A stretch of 64,000 nt of DNA, taken from Octopus vulgaris (Eukaryota). The DNA lies in NCBI GenBank assembly GCA_951406725.2, contig OX597842.1, forward strand, positions 310,001 to 374,000. Direction: 5' to 3'. The position numbers and the translations under genes are program-made. Of the stretch, positions 8,870 to 50,544 are shown piece after piece; within the stretch, counting starts at the first letter, position 1, and the number at the start of each line of letters is the position of its first letter. The notes under the pieces are model-generated. The model ran no database searches, was not told the DNA's origin, and was given only the letters and a program-made list of their open reading frames with translations.

Positions 8870-8908
8870 AATCGACAAATATAAACGATGATAATATCAC
8901 CCAAAGTT
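8870..8908 (+). CDS. 39-nt microexon e6, (E)STNINDDNITQS
   Basis: ttttttacAG / GTAAGT boundaries; identical to e3. Confidence 0.72.
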
Positions 8909-17243: not shown

Positions 17244-17417
17244 AACACTAGCCTTTCATATTTTGCACTGTATGAACATTACCTTACATAGGTCGAGACT
17301 AGGGGTAGGGATGGTGAAAGAGCATTTGCAGTCTTCATGGGAAGCAACCCCGGGATGGCAAAGAATAGGAACTTCCGGTATGTGTGGAGGGAGTGGGAGG
17401 GCGGTTGCATCGTAACA

Positions 17418-18034
17418 TAGTAAGAGGTTCTGTTAATCGTGTGAGCTAGCAAATGGGTTTGAAAAATCAGAGGGAATAATCATTATTGATAACTAATATA
17501 ACATCGTAGCTTAGTAAGAGGTTCTGTTAATCGTGTGAGCTAGCAAATGGGTTTGAAAAATCAGAGGGAATAATCATTATTGATAACTAATATAACATCG
17601 TAGCTTAGTAAGAGGTTCTGTTGATCGTGTGAGCTAGCAAATGGGTTTGAAAAATCAGAGGGAATAATCATTATTGATAACTAATATAACATCGTAGCTT
17701 AGTAAGAGGTTCTGTTAATCGTGTGAGCTAGCAAATGGGTTTGAAAAATCAGAGGGAATAATCATTATTGATAACTAATATAACATCGTAGCTTAGTAAG
17801 AGGTTCTGTTAATCGTGTGAGCTAGCAAATGGGTTTGAAAAATCAGAGGGAATAATCATTATTGATAACTAATATAACATCGTAGCTTAGTAAGAGGTTC
17901 TGTTAATCGTGTGAGCTAGAAAATGGGTTTGAAAAATCAGAGGGAATAATCATTATTGATAACTAATATAACATCGTAGCTTAGTAAGAGGTTCTGTTAA
18001 TCGTGTGAGCTAGCAAATGGGTTTGAAAAATCAG
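17418..18034. repeat. 94-bp tandem repeat (about 6.5 copies) in the RTE-1 5' UTR
   Basis: Unit TAGTAAGAGGTTCTGTTAATCGTGTGAGC... starts at 17418, 17512, 17606, 17700, 17794, 17888 and 17982; copies are almost identical. Confidence 0.95.
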
Positions 18035-20095: not shown

Positions 20096-20279
20096 AACAT
20101 ACACGCACACACACACACACATATGCATACAATGGGCTTCTTTCAGTTTCCATCAAGAAAATCCACTCACAAGGCTGAGGCTATAGTAGAAGACACTTTC
20201 CCAAGGTGCTGTGCAGTGGGACTGAACCCAGGACCATTTGATTTTGAAGAAAACTTCTCAACCGATTTCTTTATTTTAG

Positions 20280-20528
20280 CCGTTACTATGCCCAATGGAA
20301 ATCTCACCCTTACAATGTCAATCCCATATGAGAGACGACCGGTGGATAGGGAGTGGCAGACTTCTAAATATGTATGTGACAGGACATGCGCTGATTGCCC
20401 TGGCTATAAAGTGAAACGTTTTGGAAATACTTCGACTTTTACTATGAAAAACGCAACTAAGAAATGTATCACTTGGAAATTTGCTGGTGGCAACCTTGAT
20501 GCAGCAGACTTCCATTTGAAGATAAACA
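20280..20528 (+). CDS. Ig-like domain exon A (249 nt, phase 1-1)
   Basis: ttctttattttAG / A-GTAAGG boundaries; encodes [15 protein letters not shown]...CDRTC...NTSTFTMKNAT..TWKF...FHLKIN, a beta-sandwich-like pattern. The Ig assignment is an inference. Confidence 0.85.
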
Positions 20529-20835
20529 GTAAGGAAATGATTTATAATAATTTTTTTATTAACCACAGAGGGCGAACACAAACGAAAACATTTGGGAGGG
20601 ACCAGTGTGGGTTTTAGCATGTAAAAAGTCATACAATGAATGAAACAAAGTCAAAGTAAAACCCCTGAGAGTGGAGGGACTTTCAAGGGCCACACGTAAA
20701 GAAAGCCCACAAAATCCATGGTCTCCGTGACCACCAGGGTGGATACCCTCTCCCAGTCTTTCCTCTCCAATATACAGGGATACACTAAGAGAAGGCCCAT
20801 TCACTCAGGTAATGCTCACCTCTCTCACCCACCAG

Positions 20836-20861
20836 ATCATGGATGTTTGAAACATTTGTCT
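20836..20861 (+). pseudogene. Truncated remnant of the leader (signal peptide) exon at the internal duplication junction; second copy at 33194-33219
   Basis: ccAG-ATCATGG(A/C)TGTTTG(A/C)AACATTTGTCT-GTAAGT aligns to exon 27773-27821 with a 23-nt deletion, and the downstream intron matches 27822 onward. Confidence 0.75.
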
Positions 20862-21978
20862 GTAAGTTTTATTTTTATTGTATTTTATTTTTTCCATAAC
20901 TTATTTTTGTTAAGGAAAACTTACTCAAGAGCACAGAGGTCTGGAATAGGTCACTCACATAAGGAGGATTTTCCTTGTTTGGACAGGGATTTTTCCAATT
21001 TTGTTTTTAGCAGAGCTTTAGAAATGATGCATTTTATGGAAGAAAATTTTGGAAAATTTTTCATTTTTCACCACAATCCAACTTATAAATTATCTACCTC
21101 ATTAACAAATTATATACAGACCTCAGGTCCCAAAACATTCCCTATATTCTACCCTGGTTAATTAACAGTGAGCCCTCACACCCACCCACCCCATACAACA
21201 CTAATCTTGGCACTGGGTATGAAAATCATCCACTATCTTTCAAAACCCAAGCCTCTCATTATTTAATAAATTTTCAGATGTAATCCTCTCATGTAAACAC
21301 AGACCATATTCCTTGTTTGCCTATTATGTTAAATCTATGTAATCTATTTACTCATACATGTCTACATACCTCGGTACTTTGATGTGCCACCAACCCATCT
21401 TCATTTTTCAGATTTCCCCTTTGCTACACTACTAGCATCTGTAACTGGACCCTTTCTCTTCTTTTAATACTCGCCTCTCCCATCTTCCACCTTTCCAATT
21501 TCCCTTAGTTCTATAGTGCCACCATCCCTAACTATTAACATCTATTGTCATACCCAACAATGACCACCCTTGAAAATACTTTTCCTCTCACTCCTCCCAC
21601 TCATCTCCCAATTTTCCACTTCTACTTCTTTCAATACCCTGATCACCCCACCTCCATCTTCCTCATCTGGCTATCTCTTCTTACCCCTCCTTGTGTCAAC
21701 ACACCAACATTGAGCTATCTACTTCCTCCCTCCTGGTTTTTGAATTAATCATTCATTATCTTGTAGTTTTGACATTTTGATGATGTGATTGTTTATTTTT
21801 AGACTGACATTGTAGGGTAGGTGTGAGAGGGTGGATGTGGCTAGTTCAAACATAAAACAGATATGGCTGGTTTAATCCTTTAGCAATCAGATAACTGTGA
21901 AATATAATGTTCTTTTATTCACAGTATTTTGAATTATATCATCTTAAAATCAAACATTTTTGTGTTCCTTTTTAACAG

Positions 21979-22017
21979 GTTTGACAAATGAATATGCTTA
22001 TAGAATCACCCAAAGTG
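21979..22017 (+). CDS. 39-nt microexon preceding Ig-like exon B, (S)LTNEYAYRITQS
   Basis: tttaacAG / GTAAGT boundaries; in frame between exons A and B. Confidence 0.8.
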
Positions 22018-22330
22018 GTAAGTGGATTAACAAACCTTTTTGCTCCTTTTAAACTAGATATTACCTTTTCAGTTCTGTCTTCTATTTCTTTCCCTTAACT
22101 CATAACTTTTAGCCAATCTTTTGACTTTTGATTTCTTTAAATTTGTAATTTGACCTTTGAGAAAGGCTAAAGAGCCAAAAGTGCACATATGTTTTTTTAT
22201 TATTTGTTTTTGCAATTTACTTTATCATTGATCTTTTATTGTTATTTTATTTTTAATATTTCTATTATATGTAATTTTCTATATGGTGTAATTTAATTGT
22301 TCGTTTTGAATTGATAAAAGGTGTTTTTTC

Positions 22331-22364
<34 letters not shown>

Positions 22365-24063
22365 ATCAAAATAAGCAACAAGAATAACTTCGGTAATTCG
22401 GTACGATCGTTTCACGATACATCATTTTATTAAATGTTGTAATTATTAATACTGTTTTAAAATGCTGAGCACTCATCAGCCATTAATAGAGACTTTCCAT
22501 TAATACATAATTTTCATATGATATGGAAATTATGTATAAATTTAATTTTAAAACTCTTGTAATACTTACAATATTTAATAAAATGATGTGGCATGAAACG
22601 ATCGTACCAAACTACCGGAGTCATTCTTGTTGTTTATTTTGATTATAATCACCACACAAATTTTTATGGATAACACCATACAAAATTCTGGTGCATCTAA
22701 CTTAAGTACCATGTTCATTAGAACCTACAATTTACTGAACTTATATATATATATATATATATATATAGTAAAGATTATTTGCCAACATAACTTGGAAATC
22801 CTGGTTAGAACAAGTGGTACTGTTATTTAACACCAGGAAAAATCATCTCCAGGTGGTTATACAGCACACTATCTGCATACCAATAGTCTCTGAGTTATTT
22901 CCCTTCATCAGGAAAGAATAACTGCTTGGCTAGAGATGGCACCACTAAACTCTTGTCCAAAATATATACTTTTCAAAGTGACACACAGTTACTGATCTAA
23001 TAAATAGAAAATTATTTCTAAATCTCTGAACGAGAAACATTGAGTAACAGTACTCTAGAGTAAAGATTATTTGCCAACATAATGTGGCAGTCCTGGTTAG
23101 GACGATCGTTACTGTTATTTAGCCCTAGGAAACATCATCTCCAGCTGGAAATATGACACACTAGCTGCATCCTTACATTTTCGGACAAGGAAGTTTAGCA
23201 TCCCATAGGACATAGATAGTGTGTCATATAAACAGTGGGAGACGATGTTTCCTGGGGCTGAAGAACAGTAACAATCATCCTAACTAGGACTGCCATATTA
23301 CGTTGGCAAATAATCTTTACTCTCAAGTACTGACTGCGGCCATGCTGGAGCACCACCTTCAGTCAAGCAAATCGACCCCAGGACTTATTCTTTGTAAGCC
23401 TAGTAATTTTTCTATTGGTCTCTTCTGCCGAACCGCTAAGTTACAGGGGCATGAACACACCTGCATTGATTGTCAAGCGATGTTGGAAGGACAAACAGAG
23501 ACACACAAACACACACACACATATATATATATATATACATATACACGACAGGCTTCTTTCAGTTTGCATCTACCAAATCCACTCACAAGGTGGGACTGAA
23601 CCCGGAACCATGTGGTTGGTAAGCAAGCTATTTACCACACAGCCACTCCTGCACCTATATCTATATCTATTTATATACATATATATTTATATATATATAT
23701 AAACAATGGGCTTCTTTCAGTTTCCACCTATCAAATCCACTCACAAGGCTTTGAAACACACAAGTGTGTATATATATCATATATATGTATATATATATAC
23801 ATATATATATGTATATATATATACATATATATATGTATATATGTATATATATATACATACACGCACACACGCACGCAAACACACACACACACACACATTC
23901 ACAAATATACATAGAATGGGCTTCTTTCAATTTCCATCAAGAAAGTTCACTCTCAAGGATGAGGCTATAGTAGAAGACACTTTCCCAAGGTGCTGTGCAG
24001 TGGGACTGAACCCAGAACCATTTGATCGTGAAGAAAACTTCTTAACCGATTTCTTTATTTCAG

Positions 24064-24312
24064 GAATCGCTGTGCTCAATGGAAATGTCACAATTACAAT
24101 AACAATACCAAAAACGAAACGACCGGTGATTTGGGAGCACCATGATTATACAAATGAATGTGACAGGACATGCTTAAATGGCAATTACTATATAGTGAGA
24201 CATATTGTAAATACTTCGACTGTTTCGGTCACAGATCAATCTGAGGAATGTTCGACTTGGAAATTTAATGATGTCAACCTTAATGCAGCAGACATTCATT
24301 TGAAGATAGAAG
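24064..24312 (+). CDS. Ig-like domain exon B (249 nt, phase 1-1)
   Basis: ttctttatttcAG / G-GTAAGG boundaries; encodes [25 protein letters not shown]...CDRTC...NTSTVSV...TWKF...IHLKIE. Confidence 0.85.
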
Positions 24313-25295
24313 GTAAGGAAATGATTTATAATAATTTCTTTATTAACCTCAGAGGGCGAACACAAAGGAAAACATTTGGGAGGGTACGGTGTGGGTTTTA
24401 GCATGTAAAAAGGCATACAATGAATGAAACAAAGTCAAAGTAAAACCCCTGAGAGTGGAGGGACTTTCAAGGGCCACATGTAAAGAAAGCCCACAAAATC
24501 CATAGTTGCTCTGACCACCAGGGTGGATGCCCTCTCCAATATACATGTATACACTAAGAGAAGGCCCATTCACACAGGTAATGCTCACCTGTCTCACCCA
24601 CCTTTCACCAAACTGCTTGCAAGGCAGCCCTTATCTCTCCCCCCCTGATTTTCCTCTCTAAGTGAAACCTGAAAAAGATTATTAAGGTTTTGACAAAAAA
24701 ACAACTTTAGCCCTTTCAGCAATGTCTACTATATGATCCCCTTTGCCCTGGGCCTCAAGCAGATAAAAACTGGTTGCCTTTCCTGGTTGAAGGAAAGTAG
24801 AGGGGCCATCTTCTCAAGGGACTCAGCTGATAATTACTCTTTTACTCTTTTACTTCTTTCGGTCATTCGACTACGGCCATGCTGGAACACCGCCTTGAGT
24901 CGAGCAAATCAACCCCAGGACTTATTCCATGGAAGCCTAGTACTTATTCTATCGGTCTCTTTTGCCAAACTGCAAGTTATGGGGTTGTAAACACACTACC
25001 ATCAGTTGTCAAGGGGCCACGCAGTGGGAATGAACCCGGAAACATGTGGTTTGTAAGGAAGTTACTTACCACACAGCCACTCAATAATGATTCCTTTTAT
25101 TTGCCATAAGATAAAGAATAAGGAGGTCAATACCAAGATAGACATAAGGTGTGTGTGTGTGGGGGGGTTTATATATACGAAAGGATTAAAAAAATAGGAA
25201 GTATATATGGTTAACAATAAATAAAGAAGGGGCGTATACAAATTAAACACCAGTAGAAGAAAGGTAAGAGCTCACTGAATTTTGCCCAGGCTATT

Positions 25296-25801
25296 CTTGT
25301 TTTTGAATATTTTTATCCCCATAAAAATATTTATGCTATTAATAAAAATTAGTTTGAAAATTTGATTTTTGGTGGAATTCTCGTTTAAGTACCCCATATA
25401 ACCACTCATAACCTTTCTTAACTTTTAGGAATTAAAAAAAAATTCAGTACATTTTCAGTAAAATATTCAAAAATATAGTTTTTTAATTTTATATTTCAGC
25501 TTATGTAGAGAAACTAAGTTCCTTTTCTTGGTTGTATTTCTCAGTTTCTTCTAATATGTATTGTTCTTGAATATTTTTATCCTCATAAAAACATTTATGC
25601 TATTAATAAAAATTAGTTTGAAAATTTGATTTTTGGTGGAATTCTCGTTTAAGTACCCCATATAACCACTCATAACCTTTTTTAACTTTTTGGAATTAAA
25701 AAAAATTCAGTACATTTTCAGTAAAATTTTTAAAAAATAGTTTCTTTTCTTTTTATCTTTCAGAAACCAAGTCCCTTTCATTGTTTGGATTTCCCAGTTG
25801 G
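25296..25801. repeat. ~265-bp AT-rich tandem unit (about 2 copies), also at ~49935-50336; marks the start of each gene-copy segment
   Basis: ttgaatatttttatcc...ggtggaattctcgtttaagtaccccatataaccac...ttcagtacattttcag recurs at 25303, 25567 and 50092. Confidence 0.85.
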
Positions 25802-25840
25802 TATTTGAAACTTCCCATTGCATCAAGCTACAACTACAAG
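25764..25840 (+). other. Candidate 77-nt exon upstream of the leader exon (5' UTR exon or in-frame linker)
   Basis: Long pyrimidine tract plus cAG acceptor and a strong AAG-GTATGT donor; open in the phase 1>0 frame (ETKSLSLFGFPSWYLKLPIASSYNYK). Confidence 0.5.
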
Positions 25841-26311
25841 GTATGTCCAAATTTAAGAGACTCTGTTGTTAATACTGGTTTGTATAGTAATAAAAACACA
25901 AGATATATATTAAAGATTATTTCGTAAAATTAAGGTGAACATCAGTAATATATCGATATGCTATTTTCTGACAGTGATTCTCTTAAATTAATAATTAAGA
26001 TAATACTTCATTTTATGATCCAGAAAGTGAAACACCATGCTGTCTTTTCAATAATCATATTAATTTGTGTGTGTAGGAAAAATTTTCTGAAATTATAAGG
26101 ACTGTTTAAACTAGGATTCTACCTAGAAGGCCACAATTATACAAATACCTTTAATTTGGTATTTGTTTTCATTCAGCAAGAAGAAAGAAAGAGACAAAGA
26201 ATGCAGTCTCTTTAGTGTTGTATAGTAACTGATAAAACTCCGAAGAAAAGGGGGGGAGGGAGCAGAAACAGTACAAAGTTTAAATCTGTCTCGCTTCAAA
26301 TTTTACATTAA

Positions 26312-26531
26312 CCCTTTTGATACCAACCTGGCCAAAACCTGCTCTGGCTCTGTAGTACAAACATCTCGTTTTCTTAAAGTTTTGAATTAAAATCTTCTTC
26401 CAAACCTTTATCACAATTTATGATACGAACACTAGCTAAATGGTAACTAAGTTATTTTTCTAAATTCTTTGTTATATTTAAAATTAATTGAAAAACAGAC
26501 CATCTCAACAGTAATATGGTAACGAAAAGGG
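26312..26531. mobile_element. piggyBac-like MITE; decayed second copy at ~26617-26836
   Basis: TTAA-CCCTTTTGATACC ... GGTAACGAAAAGGG-TT termini; the internal sequence is the reverse complement of the MITE at 44202. Confidence 0.7.
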
Positions 26532-26875
26532 TTCAAGACAGTCGGTCAAATGTGTCTTCAATTTGCACAAAATTTGGCTGCTATTTCTAACAAGTGAAAC
26601 AAAATCTGCAAATTTACCCTTTGGATATCAACCCGCCTGAAACCCGCTTCTGGCTCCGTAGTACAAATGCCTTGTTTTCAAAAGTTTTGAATTAAAATCT
26701 TCCACCAAACCTTAGTCACAATTTATGTTCCTAACACTAGCTTAATGATAACCAAGTTATTTTTCTAAATTCTTTGTTATATTCAAAATTAATTGAAAGA
26801 AACACAGAGCATCTCAAAATACATTAATGAGAGGGTTTAGGAGTGGAACATACAATTTGTTGTAATTCAGACCAC

Positions 26876-27050
26876 CTCAAGCAGACAAAATAGAAAAGGA
26901 GTTGCCCAGGAGGATGGCAACGGAGATGCGTTGGAACAGCCACTCTGACCGAAAAGGCTGGCACAAGCGGATAGCCATTTGTGCCCGATAGCTGTGAGCA
27001 GGAATGTGATCCAGGGCCCTAGGGTGTCAGAGGTCTCCAATGTGCACACT
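26876..27050 (-). mobile_element. C-terminal fragment of an RLE-type (CRE-like) non-LTR retrotransposon
   Basis: Minus strand, with a frameshift, gives LETSDTLGP...SEWLFQRISVAILLGNSFSILSA*, resembling the ETxGxxG...LFQRISxAIxxGN end of restriction-like endonuclease LINEs. Confidence 0.6.
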
Positions 27051-27503
27051 CAACAATAAACCCACCATTCCACAAAGATTTCTTTCCAAAAATTTTCCTA
27101 AATAAAAATCGTTATATTATCTTTCTGTGTATTCATTTTTCATTTCATCTAGTTTCAGCTCACGAGCTGTGGCCATGCTGGGGCACCGCCTAGTTTTAAT
27201 TTAGAGTGTACCACGTAAATACGTATCACTATGAATTTTTGAAAATATTTAAATCTACTTTTTCTTTTTTTTTTCTTGGTGAAATGAAATGATGTGTGAT
27301 TTTCAAATGAAATGATGTGTGATATAAGGAAGATTTAGCTATTGTGTCTTGCACATCCCACAGACACTGTATACCTTTCACAGAATAACATATAGACGTA
27401 GATTAAAGAACAAACAAAATGTGAAAACTAATTCCTTATTTTAAGCATTAAAAACATAAATTCAAGACATTATCAATATCTGTAACTTACTGCAAACTCA
27501 TTA

Positions 27504-27507
<4 letters not shown>

Positions 27508-27558
<51 letters not shown>
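27508..27558. repeat. (AG)n microsatellite
   Basis: About 25 consecutive AG units. Confidence 0.97.
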
Positions 27559-27563
<5 letters not shown>

Positions 27564-27775
27564 CCCAAAACAAATATGTAAATACTGACACATATTCTGA
27601 CTATTCAAAATTGGATGAAAAAAATTACACCTGACTTTAATACTTTACAAAATTATATATATTGCACAACATGGTCTTTATTGGCAGAATTTTACCAATG
27701 TTTCTCAAAGAAAAACAAAATTTATATTTATAAGCTTTGTTATTTTGCAAATTTTGAAAATTATTTTTTCAGATC

Positions 27776-27821
27776 ATGGCCATTCGGTACTTTTTCTGCA
27801 GTTTGTCTGCAACAATGTTCG
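27776..27821 (+). CDS. Leader / signal-peptide exon, [15 protein letters not shown](G)
   Basis: ttattttttcAG-ATCATGG (good initiation context); donor G-GTAGGT in phase 1; basic residue followed by a hydrophobic stretch. Confidence 0.75.
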
Positions 27822-30800
27822 GTAGGTTTTATTTTTATTTTATTTTTTCCATAACTTATTTTTGTTAAGGAAAACTTACTCGAGGGCACAGATGTCTGGA
27901 ATTGGTCACTCACATAAGGAGGATTTTCTTTGTTTGGACAGGGATTTTTCCAATTTTGTTTTTAGCAGAGCTTTAGAAATGATGCATTTTATGGAAGAAA
28001 ATTTTGGAAAATTTTTGATTTCCACAACAATCCAACTTATAAAGTAACTACCTCATTAACAAATTATATACAGAACATCAGGTCCCAAAACATTCCCTAT
28101 ATTCTACACTAGTTAATTAACAGTGAGCCCTCACACCCACCCACCCCATACAACACTAATCTTGGCACTGTGTATGAGAATCTTCCACTAACTTTCAAAA
28201 CCCAAACCCCTCATTATTTAATAAATTTTCAGATGTAATCCTCTCATGTAAACACAGAACATATTCCTTGTTTGCCTATTATGTTAAATCTATGTAATCT
28301 ATTTACTCATACATGTCTATATACACCGGTACTTTGATGTGCCACCAACCCATCTTCATTTTTCAGATTTCCCCTTTGCTACACTACTAGCATCTGTAAC
28401 TGAACCCTTTCTCTCCCTTTAATACTCGCCTCTCCCATCTTCCACCTTTCCAATTTCCCTTAGTTCTATAGTGCCACCATCCCTAACTATTAACATCTAT
28501 TGTCATACCCAACAATGACCACCCTTGAAAATACTTTTCTGTTCACTCCTCCCACTCATCTCCCAATTTTCCACTTCTACTTCTTTCAATACCCTGATCA
28601 CCCCACCTCCATCATCCTCATCTGGCTATCTCTTCTTACCCCTCCTTGTCTCAACACACCCACATTGAGATATCTACAACCACCCTCTTGGTTTTTGAAT
28701 TAACCATTGATTATCTTGTAGTTTTGACATTTTGATGATGTGATTGTTTATTTGTAGACTGACATTGTAGGGTAGGTGTGCGAGGGTGGATGTGGCTAGT
28801 TCAAACATAAAACAGATATGGCTGGTTTAATCCTTTAGCAATCAGATAACTGTGAAATATAATGTTCTTTTATTCACAGTATTTTGAAATATATCATCTT
28901 AAAATGAAACGTTTTTGTTTTCATTTTTTACAGGTTGGACAAATACATATGCTTATAAAATAACCCACAGTTGTAAGTAGATTAACAAACCTTTTCTCTC
29001 CTTTTAAACTAGACATTACCTTTGCAGTTCTTCTTTTCCTATCCCTTAACTCATAACTTTTAGCCAATCTTTTGATTTTTGATTTCTTTCAATTTCTAAT
29101 TCAATTTCTAATTTAACCTTTGAGAAAGGCTAAAGAGCCCAAAATGCACATCAGGGAATGTACTTTAACAGTGGTTTTCGACAAGGGTCATGATGGTTTG
29201 TGGGGATCCATATAGGACTGACACCTTCAATTTTGCTATGGATCCAACAAGCCACAGCATTGTGGTGAACTCCATTCCATGCATTGGCAAGGCTTCTATT
29301 GGTTCATGGCCTTCCTAACACCCAACACTTTACCTCATGTAGTAGCTGCTTTTCTTCATTGCACCACCACTCATTTGGTTACCATGTAGCTGCGATTATG
29401 ACAGTCGTTCTGAATAGGATTGTTGTTATGATGTTTGTCATCTTCACTTATGGCACCTGTGCCGGTGGCACGTAAAAAGAACCATCCGTACGTTGCCGAT
29501 GCCAGCGCTGCCTTGACTGGCTTCCATGTCGGTGGCACGTAAAAACCACCAACCGATCGTGGCCATAGTCAGCCTCACCTGGCACATAAAAAGTATCCAC
29601 TACACTCACGGTGAGGTTGGCGTTTAGGAAGGGCATCCAGCTGTAGGAACTCTGTCAGATCAGATTGGAGCCTGGTGCAGCCTCCTGGTTTCCCAGATCC
29701 AAATCGAACTCTCCAACCCATGCTAGCATGGAAAACGGATGTTAAACAATGATGATGATGTTTCATGCAGAATTCATTCCTCCTTTTTAATGCCAACCAT
29801 TTTACAGAGTACTTGGAGGCTTTTTTACATGGCACCAACACTAGAAGGTCACCAATTAACTATAAAGACAAAGGAAGCGGAAGGAAAAAGCCCCGACCGA
29901 AGAGCAAAGCAGTGAGGGTGGTGGCTTTATACCAGGTGCTGGGAGGTTAAAATAAGTGGGGTGGGTGTAAATGGAAAGTGACATGGTTTAATCCGGCGTA
30001 CACCCATGTCTGATGAAATCATGTCCCAATAAACATAAATCTCATTAAATTAAAACTCATTAGTCTAAGTGTAATAAGATGTCTAATTTCTTTTGATGGT
30101 CTCTATTGCACATTTTCCCTTTTAATTTCCAAGGGCAAAAATATTAACCCTTTAGCATTCAGATAATTCAGTGAAATGTAATCCTTATTTATTCACATCA
30201 GTTTGAATTAATCATGGATTATCTCATAGCTTTGAGATTTCAAAGATGTGATGATGAATTTTTGGAATGACATTGTAGGTTAGATGGGAGAGGCCAGAGC
30301 TGGCCAGTTTAATCATAAAAATGGCAGGATATTTGGTCCTTGCAAAAGCATTGCAGCTTCTTTTAATTGGTAAGCTCACAGACAAACTGAAAGAAGGAAT
30401 AATATGCTGTATTCATAAAGGAGGACACATGGCAGGTGCTAAAAATTATAGGCCTATCTCTCTGACCTCACACATCAGCAAAGTCATAGACTGAATAGTC
30501 TGCAAGAAACTAATCGTGTTCCATGAAGAAAATGACTTGCTGACTGATACCCAGTATGGATTTCGACCAGGCAGAAGCTGCCTCTTACAACATTATGACT
30601 GGGTGTTAAGTATTTTGTTATTTTGTCCCTTGCTTATCTCTTGTGTGTTTATATATTTATAACTTTCCAGTGATGCCCTGAACTTAATATATATATATTT
30701 ATTATTTGAGGGATTATAAATCCAAACTTACAGGGCATAAAAATTCAATTTAGAAATACTAAATCAAATTATATATATATAAAATAATAGAAAAAAACCA

Positions 30801-31052
30801 CCTTTTATCAATTCAGAATGAACAATTAAATTACACCATCTAGAAAATTACATATAATAGAAACATTAAAATTAAAATAACAATAAAATATCAATGATAA
30901 AGTAAATTGCAAAAAAAAATAATAATTTTTATTATTTGATTTTGCAATTTTAGATCTTTTATTGTTATTTTATTTTAATATTTCTATTATATTTAATTTT
31001 CTTGAAGGTGTAATTTAAATGTTCATTTTGAATTGATAAAAGGTGTTTTTTC

Positions 31053-31105
<53 letters not shown>

Positions 31106-32234
31106 AAATAAGCAACAAGAATAAATTTGGTAATTCGGTACGATCGTTTCACGATACATCATTTTATTAAATGTTGTAATTATTAGTACTGTTTTAAAAT
31201 GCTGAGCACTCATCAGCCATTAATAGAGACTTTCCATTAATACATAATTTTCATATGATATGAAAATTATGTATTAATTTAATTTAAAAACTGTTGTAAT
31301 TCTTAGAACATTTAATAAAATGATGTAGCATGAAACGATCGTACCAAATTACCGGAACCATTCTTATTGCTTATTTTGATTATAATATCTCCATGGATTT
31401 ATATGGATAACACCATACAAAATTCTGGTGCATCTAACTTAAGTACCATATTCATTAGAATCTATATATATATTATATAAAGTAAAGATTATTTGCCAAC
31501 GTAACGTGGAAATTCTGGTTAGGACAAATGGTACCGTTATTTAACACCAGGAATCATCATCTCCAGGTGGTTATACAGCACACTATCTGCATACCAATGG
31601 TCTCTTAGTTAGTTCCCTTCATCAGGACAGAATAACTGCTCGGCTAGAGATGGCACCACTAAACTCTTGTCCAAAATATATACTTTTCAAAGTGACACAC
31701 AGTTACTGATCTAATAAATAGAAAATTATTTCTAAATCTCTATATGAGAGACATTGAGTAACAGTACTCTAGAGTAAAGATTATTTGCTAACATAATGTG
31801 GCAATCCTGGTTAGAACGATCATTACTGTTATTTAGCCCTAGGAAACATCGTCTCCAGCTGGCTATATGACACACTAGCTGCATCCTTATATTTTCGAAC
31901 AAGGGAGTTTAGCATCCCATAGGACATAGATAGTGTGTCATATAAACAGTGGGAGACAATGTTTCCTGGGGCTGAAGAACAGTAATAATCATCCTACCAA
32001 GGACTGCCATATTACGTTGGCAAATAAACTTTACTCTCAAGTACTGACTGCGGCCATGCTGGAGCACCGCCCTTTAGTTGAGCAAAATGACCCCAGGACT
32101 TATTCTTTGTAAGCCTGGTACTTATTCTATCGGTCTCTTCTGCCTAACCACTAAGTTACAGAGGCATCAACACACCAGTATTCGTTGTCAAGCGATGTTG
32201 GGAGGACAAACACACACATATATATATATATTTA

Positions 32235-32282
<48 letters not shown>

Positions 32283-32426
32283 TACAAATATATATATACA
32301 TACACACAACAGGCTTCTTTCAGTTTCTATCTATCAAATCTACTCACAATGTGGGACTAAATCTGGAACCATGTCGTTGGTAGGCAAGCAGCTTACCACA
32401 CAGCCACTCGACGCCTATATAGATAC

Positions 32427-32457
<31 letters not shown>

Positions 32458-35400
32458 AATACACATACACACACACACATATACATACAATGGGCTTTTT
32501 TCAATTTCCATCAAGAAAATCCACTCACAAGGCTGAGGCTATAGTAGAAGACACTTTCCCAAGGTGCTGTGCAGTGGGACTGAACCCAGGACCATTTGAT
32601 TTTGAAGAAAACTTCTCAACCGATTTCTTTATTTTAGCCGTTACTATGCCCAATGGAAATCTCACCCTTACAATGTCAATCCCATATGAGAGACGACCGG
32701 TGGATAGGGAGTGGCAGACTTCTAAATATGAATGTGACAGGACATGCACTGATTGCCCTGGCTATAAAGAGACACATTTTGGAAATACTTCGACTATTAC
32801 TATGAAAAACGCAACTAAGAAATGTATCACTTGGAAATTTGCTGGTGACAACCTTGATGCAGCAGACTTCCATTTGAAGATAAACGGTAAGGAAATGATT
32901 TATAATAATTTCTTTATTAACCACAGAGGGCGCACACAAACGAAAACATTTGGGAGGGACCAGTGTGGGTTTTAGCATGTAAAAAGTCATACAATGAATG
33001 AAACAAAGTCAAAGTAAAACCCCTGAGAGTGGAGGGACTTTCAAGGGCTACACGTAAAGAAAGCCCACAAAATCCATGGTCTCCGTGACCACCAGGGTGG
33101 ATGCCCTCTCCCAGTCTTTCCTCTCCAATATACAGGGATACACTAAGAGAAGGCCCATTCACTCAGGTAATGCTCACCTCTCTCACCCACCAGATCATGG
33201 CTGTTTGCAACATTTGTCTGTAAGTTTTATTTTTATTTTATTTTATTTTTTCCATAACTTATTTTTGTTAAGGCAAACTTACTCAAGAGCACAGAGGTCT
33301 GGAATAGATCACTCACATAAGGAGGATTTTCTTTGTTTGGACAGGGATTTTTCCAATTTTGTTTTTAGCAGAGCTTTAGAAATGATGCATTTTATGGAAG
33401 AAAATTTTTGAAAATTTTAGATTTTCCACCACAATCCAACTTATAAATTATCTACCTCATTAACAAATTATATACAGAACCTCAGGTCCCAAAACATTCC
33501 CTATATTCTACCATGGTTAATTAACAGTGAGCCCTCACACCCACCCACCCATACAACACTAATCTTGGCACTCTGTATGAGAATCATCCACTATCTTTCA
33601 AAATCACAACCCTTCATTATTTAATAAATTTTCAGATGTAATCCTCTCATGTAATCACAGCATCTAATCCTTGTTTGCCTATTATGTTAAATCTATGTAA
33701 TCTATTTTCTCATACATGTCTATATACCTCGGTACTTTGATGTGCCACCGACCTATCTACATTTTTCAGATTTCCCCTTTGCTACACTACTAGCATCTGT
33801 AACTGGACCCTTTCTCTTCTTTTAATACTCGCCTCTCCCATCTTCCACCTTTCCAATTTCCCTTAGTTCTATAGTGCCACCATCCCTAACTATTAACATC
33901 TATTGTCAAACCCAACAATGACCAACCTTGAAAATACTTTTCCTCTCACTCCTCCCACTCATCTCCCAAATTTTCACTTCTACTTCTTTCAATACCCTGA
34001 TCACCCCACCTCCATCTTCCTCATCTGGCTATCTCTTCTTACTGCTCCTTGTGTCAACACACCCACATTGAGCTACCGACTTTCTCCCTCCTGGTTTTTG
34101 AATTAATCATTCATTATCTTGTAGTTTTGACATTTTGATGATGTGATTGTTTACTTTTAGACTGGTTTATTTTTAACATGACAATGTAGGGTAGGTTCGA
34201 GAGGGTGGATGTGGCTAGTTCAAACATAAACAGATATGGCTGGTTTAATCCTTTAGCAATCAGATTACTGTGAAATATAATATTCTTTTATTCACATTAT
34301 TTTGAATTTTATCATCTTAAAATCAAAAGTTTTTGTTTTCCTTTTTAACAGGTTTGACAAATGTATATGCTTATAAAATAACCCAAAATGGTAAGTGGAT
34401 TAACAAACCTTTTCTCTCCTAGACATTACCTTTTCAGTTCTGTCTTCTATTTCTTTCCCTTAACTCATAACTTTTAGCCAATCTTTTGATTTTTGATTTC
34501 TCTAAATTTTTAATTTAACCTTTGAGAAAGGCTAAAGAGCAAAAAATGCACATCAGGGAATGTACTGCAGCAGTGGTTTTCGACCAGGGTCATGATGGTT
34601 TGTGGGGGTCCATATAGGACTAACACCTTCAATTTTGCTATGGATCCAACAAGCCACAGCATTGTAGTGAACTCCATTCCATGCATTGTTTCATAGCCTT
34701 CCTAGCACCCACCACTTTACCACATGTAGTGGCTGCTTTTCTTCATTGCACCACCACTCATTTGGTTACCATGTAGCTTCAATTATTGCAGTCGTTTTGA
34801 ATAGGATTGTGGTTATGATGTTTGTCATCTTCACTTATGGCACCTGTGCCGGTGGCCCGTAAAAAGAACCATCCGTACGTTGCCGATGCCAGCGCCGCCT
34901 TGACTGGCTTCCATGGCGGTGGCACGTAAAAATCACCAACCGATCGTGGCCGTTGCCAGCCTCCCCTGGCACATAAAAGGTATCCACTACACTCATGTGT
35001 GGTTGGCGTTTAGGAAGGGCATCCAGCTGTAGGAACTATGCCAGATCAGACTGGAGCCTGGTGCAGCCTCCTGGCTTCCCAGATCCAAGTCGAACCATCC
35101 AACCCATGCTAGCATGGAAAACGGATGTTAAACAATGATGATGATGTTTCATGCAGAATTCATTCCTCCTTTTTAATGCCAACCATTTTACAGAGTACTT
35201 GGAGGCTTTTTTACATGGCACCAACACTAGAAGGTCACCAATTAACTATAAAGACAAAGGAAGCGGAAGGAATAAGCCCCGACCGAAGAGCATAGCAGTG
35301 AGGGTGGTGGCTTTATACCAGGTGCTGAGAGGTTAAAATAAGTGGGGTGGGTGTAAGTGGAAAGTGACATGATTTAATCAGGCGTACACCCATGTCTGAT

Positions 35401-36482
35401 GAAATCATGTCCCAATAAACATAAATCTCATTAAATTAAAACTCGTTAGTCTAAGTGTAATAAGATGTCTAATTTCTTTTGATGGTCTCTATTGCACATT
35501 TTCCCTTTTAATTTCCAAGGGCAAAAACATTAACCCTTTAGCATTCAGATAATTCAGTGAAATGTAATCCTTATTTATTCACATTGGTTTGAATTAATCA
35601 TGGATTATCTCGTAGCTTTGAGATTTCAATGATGTGATGATGAATATTTGGAATGACATTGTAGGTTAGATGGGAGAGGCCAGAGCTGGCCAGATGAAAC
35701 ATAAAAATGGCAGGATATTTGGGCCTTGCAAAACCATTGCAGCTTCTCTTAATTGGTAAGCTCCCAGACAAACTGAAAGAAGGAATAATATGCTGTATTC
35801 ATAAAGGAGGACACATGGCAGGTGCTAAAAATTATAGGCCTATCTCTCTGACCTCACACATCAGCAAAGTCATAGACTGAATAGTCTGCAAGAAACTAAT
35901 CGTGTTCCATGAAGAAAATGACTTGCTGACTGATACCCTGCATGGATTTCGACCAGGTAGAATCTGTCTCTTACAACATTATGACTGGGTGTTAAGTATT
36001 TTGTTATTTTGTCACTTGCTTATCTCTTGTGTGTTTATATATTTATAACTTTCCAGTGATGCCCTGAACTTAATATATATATAGTTATTATTTGAGGGAA
36101 TATAAATCCAAACTTAGAGGGAATAAAAATTCAACTTAGAATTACTAAATCAAATTTCACACAATATAATATATATATAAAATAATAGAAAAAACCCACC
36201 TTTTATCAATTCAAAATGAACAATTAAATTACACCATCTAGAAAATTACATATAATAGAAACATTAAAATTAAAATAACAATAAAATATCAATGATTAAG
36301 TAAATTGCAAAAAAAAAATAATACCAATTATATATGTTTTTTTATTATTTGTTTTTGCAATTTACTTAATCATTGATCTTTTATTGTTATTTTAGTTTTA
36401 ATGTTTCTATTATATTTAATTTTCTAGAAGGTGTAATTTAATTGTTCATTTTGAATTGATAAAAGGTGTTTTTCTAATTTTA

Positions 36483-36528
<46 letters not shown>

Positions 36529-37648
36529 CAAAATAAGCAACAAGAATAACTTCGGTAATTCGGTACGATTGTTTCATGATACATCATTTTATTAAATGTT
36601 GTAAGTATTAGAACAGTTTTAAAATGCTGAGCACTCATCAGCCATTAATAGAGGCTTTCCATTAATACATAATTTTCATATGATATGAAAATTATGTATT
36701 AATTTAATTTAAAAATAGTTGTAATACTTACAACATTTAATAAAATGTTATAGCATGAAACGATCGTACCAAATTACCGGAGTCATTCTTGTTGATTATT
36801 TTGATTATAATCACCCCATGGAATTTTATGGATAACACCATACAAAATTCTGGTGCATCTAACTTAAGTACCATATTCATTAGAATCTATATATATATTA
36901 TATAAAGTAAAGATTATTTGCCAACGTAACGTGGAAATCCTGGTTAGGAAAAATGGTACTGTTATTTAACACCAGGAATCATCATCTCCAGGTGGTTATA
37001 CAGCACACTATCTGCATACCAATGGTCTCTGAGTTATTTCCCTTCATCAGGAAAGAATAACTGCTCGGCTAGAGATGGCACCACTAAACTCTTGTCCAAA
37101 ATATATACTTTTCAAAGTGACACACAGTTACTGATCTAATAAACAGAAAATTATTTCTAAATCTCTAAATGAGAGACATTGAGTAACAGTACTCTAGAGT
37201 AAAGATTATTTGCCAACTTAATGTGGCAGTCCTGGTTAGGACGATTGTTACTGTTATTTAGCCCTAGGAAACATCGTCTCCAGCTGGCTATATGACACTG
37301 TAGCTTCATCCTTACATTTTTGAACAAGGGAGTTTAGTATCCCATAGGACATAGATAGTGTGTCATATAAACAGTGGGAGACAATGTTTCCTGAGGCTGA
37401 AGAACAGTAACAATCATCCTAACTAGGACTGCCATATTATGTTGGCAAATATTCTTTACTCTCGAGTACTGACTGCGGCCATGCTGGAGCACCACCTTCA
37501 GTCGAGCAAATCGATCCCAGGACTTTTTCTTTGTAAGCCTAGTACTTATTCTATTGGTCTCTTCTGCCGAACTGCTAAGTTACAGGGGCATGAACACACC
37601 ATCATTGGTTGCCAAGCGATGTTGGGAGGACAAACACAGACACACAAT

Positions 37649-37690
<42 letters not shown>

Positions 37691-40600
37691 TGTATATACA
37701 TATACACGACAGTTTCCATCTACCAAATCCACTCACAAGGTGGGACTGAACCCAGAACCATGTGGTTGGTGAGCAAGCTACTTACCACACAGTCACTCCT
37801 GCGCCTTATATCTGTATCTATATATATATATCATCATCATCGTTTAACGTCCGCTTTCCGCGCTAGCACGGGTTGGACAGTTCAACCGGGTCTGGGAAGC
37901 CAGGGGCCGCTCCAGGCTCCAGTCTGAATCTGGCAGAGTTTCTACGGCTGGATGCCCTTCCTAACGCCAACCACTCCGTGAGTGGATTGGGTGCTTTTTA
38001 CGTGCCACCTGCACAGGGGCCGGAGGGTCCGGCATCGTCACGATCGGTTCGAGCATTTTAACGTGTCAGCGGCACGGGGGCAACGAGGTCCGGGGTACTT
38101 TGGGGATCGGGGTACTTTGGGGATCCAGGGTACTTTGGGGATCCGGGGTACTTAGAATGGGTAGGGGGTATGTGGAATTGCTGCAGAAAGCAGCCCGGGT
38201 CTTTGTAGTCACAGCATATCTCCAGAGATCTCGGTCCTTCGCCATTGCCTCAGTGAGGCCCAACGCTCTGAGGTCATGCTTGACAACCTCATCCCATGTC
38301 TTCCTGGGTCTACCTCTCCCCCTGATACCTTCAACTGTTTGGGAGTGGCACTTCTTCACACATCTCTCTTCATCCATCCGCAGCACATGACCATACCATC
38401 GCAAGCGTCGCTCTTGCACACCACATCTGATGCTTCTTATATCCAGCATTTCTCTCAGGATACTTACACTCTGTTTTGCGTGCACACTGACACTACACAT
38501 CCAGCGGATCATGCTAGCTTCATTTCTTTCAAGTCTACGCATGTCTTCTGCAGTCACAGCCCATGTTTCATTACCGTGAAGCATGGCAGTTCGCACACAT
38601 GCATCATACAATCTACCTTTTGCTCTGAGGGAGAGACCTTTTGTTGCCAGTAGGGGTAGGAGCTTTCTGAACTTTGCCCAGGCTATTCGTATTCTAGTGG
38701 TGATACTCTCTGTGCATCCACCTCCGCTACTAACTTGGTCACCCAGGTAGCGGAAACTATCAACTACTTCTAGTTTCTCTCCCTGGAGTGTGATGGAATC
38801 TGTTTTCTAAGTGTCTGTTGTGTCTATTGTCCCTGTGCATCTGCCGCACATGAAAGCTATCTTATCTGTTAATTTCCCTTTAATGTTGCTGCACCTCTTA
38901 TGTGTCCATAACTTACATTGGGTGCATCTTATGGAGTTTCTACCTGTACCTTTCCTACAGGTTGAGCAGGGCCACCTACCCGAGGGGATGTGTGCTGAGT
39001 ACCTCTTGCTGCTTACTAATACTTTGGTCTTTGCTACATTTATTCTAAGGCCCTTTGATTCCAACCCTTGCTTCCACACCCGAAATTTCTCTTCTAGTTC
39101 CGGTAGTGATTCTGCTATGAGAGCTAGGTCATCGGCATAGAGGAGCTCCCAGGGGCATCCCGTTTTGAATTCCTCTGTTATTGCCTGAAGGACTATGATG
39201 AATAAAAGGGGACTGAGGGCTGAGCTCTGGTGCACACCTACTTCTACCCGGAATTCTTCACTTTATTCGTTGCCAATCCTAACCTTGCTGACAGCCTCTC
39301 TGTATAGAGCCTGTACAACCCTTATTAGCCATTCTTCAATCTCCAGTTTCCGCATCGACCACCAGATAAGGGAACGGGGAACCCTGTCAAAGGCTTTCTC
39401 CAAGTCTACAAAAGCTATGTAGAGGGGTTTATCTTTAGCTAGGTACTTCTCCTGCAGTTGTCGGACCAGGAATATAGCATCAGTGGTGCTTCTACCTGGT
39501 ACAAAACCGAACTGCATTTTATCTAAACAAATTCTCTCCCTAATGAGATTGGTTATGACCTTCTCTGAGACCTTCATCACCTGGTCCAACAGTTTGATAC
39601 CTCTGTAGTTATTTCTATCTAGAGCATCACCCTTACCCTTGTAGCAGTTGACTATGGTGCTGCTGCACCAGTCATTGGGTATGACTCCATTGTGAACTAC
39701 CTGGTTTACAATGCGGGTGACTATGGCATAGCCCACATAGCCAGCTGTTTTAAGCATCTCAGCAGTGATTCCTGATAGGCCAGGGGCTTTGCCTGGTTTC
39801 ATATCCTTAATTGCCTTATCTACAAGGGAGCTCTCTATTCGGGTAGCTGGTCCCTCTACTGGGTCAACATTTGGCAGGCTCTCCTCCTCCCATTCATTCT
39901 CCTCATTCAGCAGTCTTTCATAATGGCTTCTCCAAGCCTCTTTCTTTTCACTAGTAGTAAAAGCAAGTGCCCCATCATCCATGCGGACACATTTCTCTCC
40001 TATAACATCGCTATTTTCTCTGACACACTGTCTGGCAATCCGAAATACTTCAGCTCTTTGATCCTCGCGACGCTGGACATTGGCAAACTTCTTCTTTTCT
40101 GCTACATCTTTGGCAATGTATACCTGCCGCCCAGCCTCCCGTTTGGCTATCTGGTACAGTTCCCTGCTGCCCCCATCCTTCCAGGCTTTCCAGGCCCGTC
40201 TCTTTTCACAGATGGCTTTATCTACTGCACTATTCCACCACCACGTAATTCTAGGTCTGGAAGGGACTTTGCACCATCCACAGACTTGGTCTGTGGCACT
40301 CAACAAGCTGTCCCGTAGGAATTCCCAGCTACCTTCTATGTCTGACGTCTGAAGCTCCTCCCTCTCATCAAATTTCTTGATGAGTATGTCCCTAAATTTC
40401 TGACCATGCGAAGGGTTCTTTAGCCTCCAAATCCTTCTTTTCTGGATTGGTTTGTTTCTTGGAGTCCTTCTGGCCTCAAGCTTAAAGTCACTGATGATTA
40501 GTCTATGCTGAGGGATACATTCTTCACCCGGGAGGGTCTTTGTATTCAAGAGCAACCCTGCATCCCGTTGTCTGGTGAGGATGAAGTCTATTTGGCTAGC

Positions 40601-43600
40601 GGAGTCTCCTGACTGATAAGTTATAAGGTGGCAGACTGGCTTCTTGAAGTTAGTGTTGCAGATTGAAAGGTTACATGCATCACAGAATTCCAGCAGTCTA
40701 GTTCCCTCATCATTTCTGGTGCCAATACCATAGCCACCATGTACCCCAGTGAAGATACCCGATTCCCGCCCAACATGCCCATTAAAATCTCCACCTACAA
40801 AGATGAGGTCCTTGTTACTAGTCTTTGAAGTAGCCTGCAGAAGGGTATCATAAAAGTTGTCCTTCTGATCATTTGGTAGTCCCGCTTGTGGGGCATAGGC
40901 TGAGATAATCATAGCTGTGCCACCCTGTAGGACCAACCTGAGCTTAAGCACTCTATCACAAACCCTGACAACCTCTATGACCTTATCCACCCATTCCTCC
41001 GCAAGGAGAATGCCTACACCCCCTACACCTTCCGCGTTACCTTGCCAGTAGAGTTTGTACCTAAGTGCCTTGCCCGTGAGGACCCTAGCCGAAGCATCTC
41101 TCCATCTTACCTCTTGTATGCAGCATACATCAACCTGTCTTCTCTCTAGCATCTCTACAATCTCACTAGACTTGCCTGTCAATGTACCAACATTGATAGT
41201 GCCAACTCTGAAAACTGGGAAGGAGATGTGGGGGGGACGGGGGGATTCGGTGCCTGAGAAGAGGAGGGTTGTTGTGGTGGTGATAGTTTTCGTGGTATTT
41301 TTCTTTTGATCTCTCTTCCAACCTGACCACGCCGTGGGCAGGAGCTGGTGTTAGCAGTGGACATTCGTTATCGTCACTGAGTAACGTAATTAGGTAGAGG
41401 AAAGAAATACAGATATTCTAGAGTTGAGTTGGGGAGGGGGGTCCAGTTGAGGCGGGTAGTATAGGGGAGCAACCAGTGGGGAAGGTTGGGGTAAGGAGGA
41501 ACGATGGCAGGAAGGATTGGTGTAGGTTCGTAAGAAATAAAAAAACGTAGGATATTACAAGGCGGGAGGGTACTAAAAGGGGATGGTCGGATTGAGGCAG
41601 TGTCAGGAGGAAGCAAAGATCGGTGGGCAGTTGATGAGCTATGGCGCTAGCAGCTTGTCTTTTCACAGTGAAAGCATATGAGGAGAAGGGGTAGTGGGGG
41701 GAGGAGGAGGGAGTAGGGCGTATCCGGTGTAGATGGTGAGAACAGGGTATACTGGTATTGGTGGTGGGGGTGAGAACAGTGTTCACCGGTATTGGTGGTG
41801 GCGGTGAGAACAGTGTTCACCGGTATTGGTGGTGGGGGTGAGAACAGTGTTCACCGGTATTGGTGGTGGGGGTGAGAACAGTGTTCACCGGTATTGGTGG
41901 TGGGGGTGAGAACAGTGTTCATCGGTAGTGGGGGTGGGGGGGGGCGGGCGCACCGCCAATGGCGGAAAGATGGGAAAAGATAGGATTACGGCTTGAGGTA
42001 GCCTAAGGTTAAATTTTGTAGAGAGAGAGATAGGAAAGATAAATCAAGTTATGGCGAAGGCTTGAAGTAGCCTAAAAGGTTAAATTTTCGTAGCGAATGA
42101 GATGGGTAAGACGAATCAAGTTATCAATGTATGAATAAACGTAGTAACAACGAAGAAAAATAGTAAGATAAATTTTTAAGAACTTGCTGCGGGCATCGAT
42201 CGGGAGTTGAAATTGAAGAAGAAAGTAAGTTGAATTGGGAGTTTAAATTGCAGAATCGTAATGGTAATGGCGATTTTCAAGTTTTAGCATAAGAAGAAGA
42301 AGAGGAGGAAAAAAAGACCGCCAATGGCGGAAAGATGGGAATATATATTTATATATATTTATATTTTCAGTTTCCACCTATCAAATCCACTCACAAGGCT
42401 TTGAAACACACAAGTGTGTGTATATATAGACATATATATATGTATATATATATATACACGCACACACACATATACATAGAATGGGCTTCTTTCAATTTCC
42501 ATCAAGAAAGTTCACTCTCAAGGATGAGGCTATAGTAGAAGACACTTTCCCAAGGTGCTGTGCAGTGGGACTGAACCCAGAACAATTTGATTGTGAAGAA
42601 AACTTCTTAACTGATTTCTTTATTTCAGGAATCGCTGTGCGCAAAGGAAATGTCACAATTACAATAACAATACCAAAAACGAAACGACCGGTGATTTGGG
42701 AGCACCATGATTATACAAATGAATGTGACAGGACATGCTTAAATGGCAATTACTATATAGTGAAAAATATTGTAAAAACTTTGTCTGTTTCGGTCAGAAA
42801 GGATAATAAGGATTGTTCGATTTGGAAATTTAATGATGTCAACCTTAATGAAGCAGACATTCATTTGAAGATAGAAGGTAAGGAAATGATTTATAATAAT
42901 TTCTTTATTAACCTCAGAGGGCGAACACAAAGGAAAACATTTGGGAGGGTACGGTGTGGGTTTTAGCATGTAAAAAGGCATACAATGAATGAAACAAAGT
43001 CAAAGTAAAACCCCTGAGAGTGGAGGGACTTTCAAGGGCCACATGTAAAGAAAGCCCACAAAATCCATAGTTGCCCTGACCACCAGGGTGGATGCCCTCT
43101 CCCAGTCTTTCCTCTCCAATATACATGTATACACTAAGAGAAGGCCCATTCACACAGGTAATGCTCACCTGTCTCACCCACCTTTCAACAAACTGCTTGC
43201 AAGGCAGCCCTTATCTCTCCCCACTGATTTTCCTCTTTAAGTGAAACCTGAAAAAGATTATTAAGGTTTTGACAAAAAGACAACTGCTGGTCTTTAGCCC
43301 TTTCAGCAATGTCTACTATATGATCCCCTTTGCCCTGGGCCTCAAGCATATAAAAAACTGGTTGCCTTTCCTGGTTGAAGTAAAGTAGAGGGGCCATCTT
43401 CACAATGGACTCAGCTGATAGTTACTCTTTTACTTCTTTCGGCTATTCGACTACGGCCATGCTGGAGCACCGCCTTTAGTCGAGCAAATCAACCCCAGGA
43501 CTTATTCTTTGGAAGCCTAGTACTTATTCTATCGGTCTCTTTTGCCGAACTGCTAAGTTACGGGGTTGTAAACACACCACCATCAGTTGTCAAGCGATGT

Positions 43601-49667: not shown

Positions 49668-50544
49668 GAATGCTACAATTTGTGTTTTTTCATATATATT
49701 TCTCCTCTAAAAGAAGAAATAATTCTATTTATCAGAATAAGACTTTCACCGATTGCATTGGCATAGTTGGATTTTAAATAATTTATATCCATATTTTTTA
49801 TATATCATCATCATTGTCATTAGTTTAACACTGTCTTTTCAAGATTCTGCTACATCTTTTGGCTAAAATAACTGAGAATTAAAAAATTTTAAAGCTATTA
49901 ACTGTCTGTTTATCAATTTATGACAATAACTAATAACTTTTTTTAACTTTTTGGAATTAAGAAAAAATTCAGTACATTTTCAGTAAAATATTCAAAAATA
50001 TAGTTTTTTAATTTTATATTTCAGCTTACGTAGAGAAACTAAGTTCCTTTTCTTGCTTTTATTTCCCAGTTGGTTCTAACGTGTATTGTTTTTGAATATT
50101 TTTATCCCCATAAAAACATTTATGCTATTAAAAAAAATTAATTTCAAAATTTGATTTTTGGTGGAATTCTCGTTTAAGTACCCCATATAACCACTCGTAA
50201 ACTTTTTAACTTTTTGGAATTAAAAAAAATTTCAGTACATTTTCAGTAAAATGTTCAAAAATATAGTTTTTTAGTTTTATATTTCAGCTTATGTAGAGAA
50301 ACTAAGTTCCTTTTCTTGCTTGTATTTCCCAGTTGGCTCGGTTAAACTAAAGCGTTTGACCCGGTCATAAAAAAAAAATAGTGTAATAGGTGTAAGTAGT
50401 ACCCAAGACTTTTTTCTTCAAGTTTCAAAGGAAACGTTGCTGGCCTAATTTTGTCATGTTTATATTCCACAGCATAAATACATAAAAACAGAACAGGCAC
50501 ACACACACACACACAGACAAGATCTTTTATTATGTATAGATATG

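Follow-up and report, generated by a model that had tools for sequence, protein, structure and literature searches.

The window that we analysed, a stretch of 64,000 nt from the 2.8-Gb genome of Octopus vulgaris (G000:C29:310001-374000), carries exons of two tandem paralogous genes, and exons A, B, A' and B' are the two Ig-fold domains of each of them (Table 1). All four exons are 249 nt long, bounded by AG and GT, in phase 1-1 and free of stop codons. It follows from this two-gene anatomy, predicted from exon types in the genomic sequence, that A and A', and likewise B and B', are equivalent domains of genes 1 and 2. Gene 1 consists of a signal-peptide exon, 28 micro-exons in tandem units of 1.49 kb, exon A, a micro-exon and exon B; the segment with the transmembrane exon is absent, and no such exon follows exon B. 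Gene 2 runs from a signal-peptide exon through a micro-exon, A', a second micro-exon and B' to a transmembrane exon, and thereby carries exons for the signal peptide, the ectodomain and the single transmembrane helix that make up a type I membrane receptor. Its last coding exon encodes a short stalk, a transmembrane-like segment with two arginines and a tail of a few residues, and a homolog of its likely 5' untranslated exon precedes the signal-peptide exon in six out of six other mapped genes that have one.

Table 1. Features of the two tandem genes (positions in the window unless a chromosome coordinate is given; the Ig fold and its strands are predicted from models)
Feature	Position	Strand	Remark
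Signal-peptide exon of gene 1	G000:C29:278977-279034		31 kb upstream of window
Last 7 of 28 micro-exon units of gene 1	1425-10399	+	39-nt phase 1-1 micro-exons
Exon A	20280-20528	+	Ig-fold domain 1 of gene 1 (strands A'-G)
Signal-peptide exon remnant	20836-20861	+	internal deletion, intronic
Micro-exon before B	21979-22017	+	linker and predicted strand A of domain B; strand from model
Exon B	24064-24312	+	Ig-fold domain 2 of gene 1; exon-alone model pLDDT 91.7
Likely 5' untranslated exon of gene 2	25764-25840	+	homologous piece in other genes
Signal-peptide exon of gene 2	27773-27821	+	49 nt, phase 1
Micro-exon before A'	28934-28972	+	
Exon A'	32638-32886	+	Ig-fold domain 1 of gene 2
Second signal-peptide exon remnant	33194-33219	+	
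Micro-exon before B'	34352-34390	+	
Exon B'	42629-42877	+	Ig-fold domain 2 of gene 2
Last coding exon of gene 2, to stop codon	49558-49667	+	only copy in 204 kb searched

None of the listed sequencing runs is recorded as RNA, and the contigs used here are guessed to be RNA. One such contig (X16) spans 20279-20527, that is exon A, with 29-30 unmatched letters on either side, and a GT..AG joint (22016-24063) connecting the micro-exon to exon B was present in three of four guessed-RNA runs. Database relatives are built on the same parts: after the signal peptide comes a unit made of a 13-residue and an 83-residue piece, present once or several times, and then a transmembrane segment with a very short tail. 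A 29-codon frame extending into the downstream intron was considered as a conserved secreted tail; being frameshifted in nine close paralogs, it is not supported as a reason for the conserved introns. The region 49929-50336, 3' of the last exon of gene 2, resembles the 5' untranslated-exon region and is possibly the stump of a third gene copy, no further domain exon being found within 60 kb downstream of it. Two LINE-type retroelement copies, which we take to be RTE elements, lie on the minus strand at 14094-17255 and 38069-41211; they are 77% identical and show endonuclease and reverse-transcriptase motifs by eye, the former with an open frame of 1054 codons and the latter broken. Tandem repeats of about 94, 85 and 206 bp (94-99% identity) occupy 17408-18034, 46116-48539 and 59146-60099, respectively. 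In many paralogs the domain exon is immediately preceded by a SINE-like high-copy piece (20135-20240 and the equivalent flanks), which is duplicated along with it.

A sequence-only reading of this stretch had proposed that the exons diverge much faster than the introns, and only at amino-acid-changing codons. The counts on which it was based are sound: A and A' differ by eight substitutions, none of them synonymous (the seven replacements listed there and a change at the junction base), B and B' by exactly 18 substitutions in 15 codons, all replacements, A and B share 36 of 82 residues, and none of the four exons contains a stop. The downstream introns show 0 differences in 190 nt between B and B', as claimed, and 8 in 190 between A and B, where about 95% identity had been given. 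The general statements hold with two limits. Exons outrun introns in B/B' (18/249 or 7.2%, vs 24/865 or 2.8%; p = 0.002) and in A/B (71/249 or 28.5%, vs 17/290 or 5.9%; p = 8e-13), but not in A/A' when whole introns are compared (8/249 or 3.2%, vs 69/1870 or 3.7%; p = 0.86). Similarly, changes are confined to replacement codons in A/A' and B/B' but not in A/B, where two codons with silent changes only accompany 46 replaced ones; one of 16 fourfold sites differs in that pair, and among its codons with a single-nucleotide change 29 are replaced and two silent (p = 0.008). Neutral changes with the mutation spectrum of the duplicated introns in the window would be silent in 25% of cases, and finding none among the 26 changes of A/A' and B/B' has a probability of 0.0006 (B/B' taken singly, 0.006; A/A', 0.10).

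Of the 18 changes between B and B', 15 are packed into 60 nt corresponding to predicted strands D to F, a density not matched in any of 20,000 permutations, and at this cluster blastn favours a gapped alignment with 12 mismatches. The 18 changes may therefore not equal 18 independent events, and the clumped ones could be a single imported patch; no donor was found among the 246-nt exons, the nearest other copy differing at 16-20 of 58 nt. Close to A/A' and B/B', over 150-400 nt, the flanking sequence is 1.5-1.8% divergent, as against 3-8% in the distal intron, and may be the trace of a conversion tract extending over the exons as well. Such a tract would make the exon excess larger, not smaller.

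The excess of replacements proposed from the four exons persists, as dN/dS above 1, when further sequences are added. Codon models were run with our own code on fixed topologies, and in the 26- and 74-exon sets the branch scale alone was refitted. The four window exons give an omega of 4.56 (p = 3e-4). For the six closest exons, M8 is preferred over M8a (p = 2e-5 and 9e-5), with omega of about 4 at 30-38% of sites and no class of omega below 1 resolved, and 26 exons of the cluster give omega 4.3 at 44% of sites. Over 74 exons omega is 0.64 overall, with a selected class of sites (M2a vs M1a, p = 5e-15). In simulations without selection that used the intron spectrum, no replicate came up to the observed omega, whether 10% double mutations were allowed or not (0/100, 0/100 and 0/60 per setting). 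Recombination was not detected by a PHI-type test in the six closest exons (p = 0.84). The same kind of test does show it in the cluster at 19.7-20.4 Mb (p = 0.002), whose site-model omega is thus inflated to some degree.

It could also be that there is no selection: in decaying genes, gene conversion may have homogenised the introns, or the assembly collapsed them, or the exons may be hypermutated. The close near flanks of A/A' and B/B', the changes at core residues and the recombination in the main cluster would all fit. However, old or hypermutated exons would bear silent changes, and these amount to none of 26 changes and two of 48 codons; the probability of meeting no stop in at least 86 changes is 0.02; and the changes are transversion-rich and mixed in direction, with no A-to-G bias. 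Since the introns are 3-8% different, with many indels, they are not collapsed. What largely refutes this explanation is that silent sites track introns: silent divergence between A and B is 0.078, vs 0.068 for the intron and 0.286 for the whole exon, and within the cluster it is 0.057 vs 0.070. In two other comparisons it is higher than in introns by a factor of at most about 1.5-1.6, with overlapping intervals; one of these sets the six exons against the cluster (0.173 vs 0.111). Silent and intron divergence being equal, intron homogenisation, which the first reading had named as a possible undoing of its claim, is not needed to explain the contrast, although it may have made a small contribution. 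We therefore consider neutral decay highly improbable, and positive selection has very probably acted on the family exons.

Several other causes were rejected. The 26 changes fall 9, 12 and 5 at codon positions 1, 2 and 3, which does not indicate an overlapping reading frame, and a base-composition artefact is discounted by the similar GC of exon and intron. Mutation spectra restricted to GC-to-AT or to changes towards A keep the silent fraction at 0.20-0.26, and transversions only at 0.15-0.17. Adenine is involved in 20 of the 26 changes, but in both directions, and RNA editing or adenine-directed mutagenesis is not supported.

The acceleration, with omega above 1, extends from the domain exons to the micro-exons and the signal-peptide exons. 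Neither the two-gene anatomy nor the fast change of the signal peptide had been noticed in the sequence-only reading, which had left the role open. Between genes 1 and 2 the signal-peptide exons differ at 18 of 49 nt, with 10 codons replaced and none silent, vs 3/36 and 10/225 (4-8%) in the introns beside them. A small set from 17 loci, of which 15 were parsed and one remnant was dropped, comprises 10 distinct sequences of about four main types, and yields omega of 7.8-8.8, or 13-14 with gaps included. The last 10 codons, where the alignment is unambiguous, place omega at the upper bound (p = 5e-6), and seven exons of equal length give 8.7-8.8 (p = 0.02). By comparison, omega of the transmembrane exons is 1.1-1.2, indistinguishable from 1 (p = 0.6-0.7). 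Six of 16 transmembrane exons have early stops, and the loci carrying them represent soluble forms or pseudogenes; they lie at C29 19.8-20.3 Mb (L139-L143 and L145), and four of the six share the same in-helix stop. When the 16 transmembrane exons were read by eye, no ITAM or ITIM was seen in their tails of about 3-15 residues. At L115 (C29:16521171-16521457) the intron after a domain exon holds a signal-peptide exon of full length whose frame is open and whose acceptor is weak; the equivalents of this exon in the window are the deleted remnants of Table 1.

The array preceding exon A consists of 28 tandem units of about 1.49 kb with one 39-nt micro-exon each. Those in the window start at 1425, 2922, 4406, 5896, 7385, 8870 and 10361, and 21 further copies are located upstream. 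All 28 micro-exons have kept AG..GT boundaries and an open frame, yet there are only eight distinct sequences of 13 residues each, most of them acidic and without the aromatic residue of strand A. The types differ by up to 16 of 39 nt with zero or one silent codon. Omega is 5.5 for 11 distinct micro-exons (p = 0.007), or 4.1 when the tree is built from flanks (p = 0.02), and reaches 7.3 for the eight array types (p = 0.02), which, together with the near-absence of silent changes, suggests that the array is translated. Database models splice tandem micro-exons in series; joints between array micro-exons were not found among the 15 rows listed (224 further ones exist) of an alignment full of repeat noise. 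Across the array (window 1-11348 and G000:C29:280155-310000) a block of about seven units occurs three times, pointing to unequal crossing-over, and copy number may vary among animals.

AlphaFold2 models of P0008, run with 50 family exons, have a confidently predicted domain (pLDDT 85-97) in which the micro-exon supplies the first strand, and exon B modelled alone takes the same fold. Foldseek returned 104 matches at E <= 0.001, those listed being Ig chains, and VIA-align retrieved Ig V- and I-type chains with many ties (best Z 11.0, rmsd 4.6, 93 aligned). From these models, the domains are predicted to be Ig beta-sandwiches of V/I type with strands A-G. Pfam I-set was recognised in four of 46 family members, and no Pfam family in the four window exons; a sequence search of solved structures had no match (best E 0.64), and the Atlas gave leads only, to Ig V-set and viral Ig-like clusters at 0.90-0.92. 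The predicted strands B and F hold no cysteine for the canonical B-F disulfide. Cysteines are found at positions 32, 36 and 62, with a CxxxC pair after strand C'. Non-canonical Ig domains have already been documented, as the accessible part of PMC9546547 indicates. The C-strand tryptophan W23 is kept in B and B' and is arginine in A and A', which break six of 19 family-conserved sites (family median 1), including W23R, V44E and S51L. Diversification covers the whole domain and not one face.

The exons belong to a clustered, uncharacterised octopod multigene family encoding type I proteins with one to four domains and short tails. The genome gave 82 matches, of which 75 were fetched and, one partial copy being dropped, 74 had both splice sites; all 74 are open. 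Genes of the same plan, with one to four domains, are seen again in mapped stretches at C29 16.5 and 19.7-20.0 Mb. Partial domain-exon copies with their flanks at C29 16.43-16.49 Mb and at C14:58606330-58606712 are likely dead fragments. Homologs are uncharacterised proteins from Argonauta hians and three Octopus species, O. vulgaris, O. sinensis and O. bimaculoides. When 1.84 billion representatives were searched with a profile, 52 hits reached E <= 0.001; names were obtained for 20 clusters and eight others, covering full-length strong hits, and these were octopod apart from a weakly matching repeat protein of Haliotis and a record with no name. The former (P0034, Haliotis rufescens), a type I protein of six repeats whose Ig-like domain has a similar CxxxC, is possibly a distant gastropod relative. 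The family was not found in a full-text literature search covering few subscription papers, nor is it mentioned in the accessible parts of PMC9712504 and PMC11431876; six O. sinensis locus identifiers were likewise absent from the full-text literature searched and from three supplements of PMC9712504.

The products are likely cell-surface receptors, and by analogy we lean, with little more than even confidence, towards an arms race with pathogens or parasites binding them as the driver. Whole genes and units of micro-exon plus domain would duplicate in tandem by birth-and-death, and selection would fix repeated amino-acid replacements while the introns drift neutrally. Copies without an anchor, such as gene 1 and those behind the six early-stop transmembrane exons, would serve as soluble decoys and the anchored ones as receptors, and the changes in the signal peptide might, as a guess, tune how each paralog is exported, where it is cleaved or how much of it reaches the surface. 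Changes at family-conserved core positions and in the signal peptide speak against the arms race, since a simple race at a binding surface does not predict them.

Other roles were considered. The family could form a self/non-self code, in which each animal or cell displays a distinctive Ig set, like binds like and rarity is favoured, as with the Alr proteins of Hydractinia. The clustered genes and tandem Ig domains without a B-F disulfide, the diversification of the whole domain rather than of a single face and the mosaic paralogs are all in keeping with this, and octopus arms avoid their own skin. We find such a code doubtful, however, because the members read have neither an Fn3-like segment nor an ITAM/ITIM tail and because decoys would better suit the anchor-less copies. 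A still less likely possibility is an undescribed octopod Ig-receptor system in which the whole precursor, including the cleaved signal peptide and an expandable acidic array, is diversified as a self code or decoy repertoire of each animal or cell. Gamete-recognition and sperm-competition proteins also show omega above 1 and lineage restriction, and the O. sinensis domain nearest to B is only 70% identical to it (a candidate pair), vs 89-98% for other family domains; with 74 domain exons at many loci, such a role is nevertheless improbable. We regard as quite improbable a neuronal wiring code like those of Dscam, Dpr/DIP or the clustered protocadherins, with the array providing alternative exons. 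Whereas the 28 micro-exons look alternative and up to 18 isoforms are modelled at one O. sinensis locus, the array offers just eight distinct 13-residue sequences, mostly acidic and lacking the strand-A aromatic, and database models join tandem micro-exons serially. Rapid replacement and loss of the anchor are, moreover, untypical of wiring molecules.

In the literature searched, no diversified receptor repertoire of cephalopods is described, and this family, with 74 or more Ig domain exons on which diversifying selection is strong, is a concrete candidate for octopus immune or self recognition. Vertebrate CEACAM, CD300, LILR/KIR and SIRP genes form birth-and-death clusters encoding one to four Ig domains, in soluble and anchored forms and under positive selection, and the tied fold matches at Z 9.4-9.6 include chains of CEACAM, CD300lf and CD200R. 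The likeness is, however, one of fold only: the octopus genes lack ITIM/ITAM pairing, and their domain is split into 39-nt and 249-nt exons. FREPs carry a C-terminal fibrinogen domain, which is missing from the octopus proteins, these ending in a transmembrane segment. According to the part of PMC13428168 available, FREPs are a diversified Ig-containing immune family of molluscs.

Among invertebrate systems Alr, PTC2 and FREPs come nearest, and each differs from the octopus genes in a defining feature. The Alr1-Alr38 allorecognition proteins of Hydractinia are, according to the accessible part of PMC9546547, type I proteins from clustered genes whose tandem Ig domains are devoid of the B-F disulfide, with an Fn3-like segment, six invariant cysteines and ITAM/ITIM tails as family hallmarks. 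The octopus genes are likewise clustered and of type I, with tandem Ig domains and no B-F disulfide, but the members read have none of these hallmarks and a C'-C'' CxxxC pair instead. In the mapped genes and the database proteins the last Ig exon is followed directly by the stalk/transmembrane exon, and no Alr protein occurs among the 20 named homolog clusters. The PTC1 (GRC) and PTC2 regions of Biomphalaria are also clusters of hyperdiverse single-pass membrane genes, a description that fits the octopus cluster, yet the PTC2 genes have no known domain and their synonymous divergence exceeds the nonsynonymous (PMC7494358, available part), in contrast to the Ig fold and higher dN than dS found here.

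That exons evolve faster than introns is already established. In snake venom PLA2 and conotoxin genes introns are more conserved than exons and KA equals or exceeds KS, the signal-peptide exon being the conserved exception, as stated in the available parts of PMC7285919 and PMC3862624. The octopus family shares the conserved introns and the excess of dN over dS, but its products are predicted membrane proteins of Ig fold rather than secreted toxins, and its signal-peptide exon, with omega of at least 8, differs from those cases in being accelerated itself. Positive selection on a signal peptide, the very part that those textbook examples conserve, points towards a selective pressure on export or processing.
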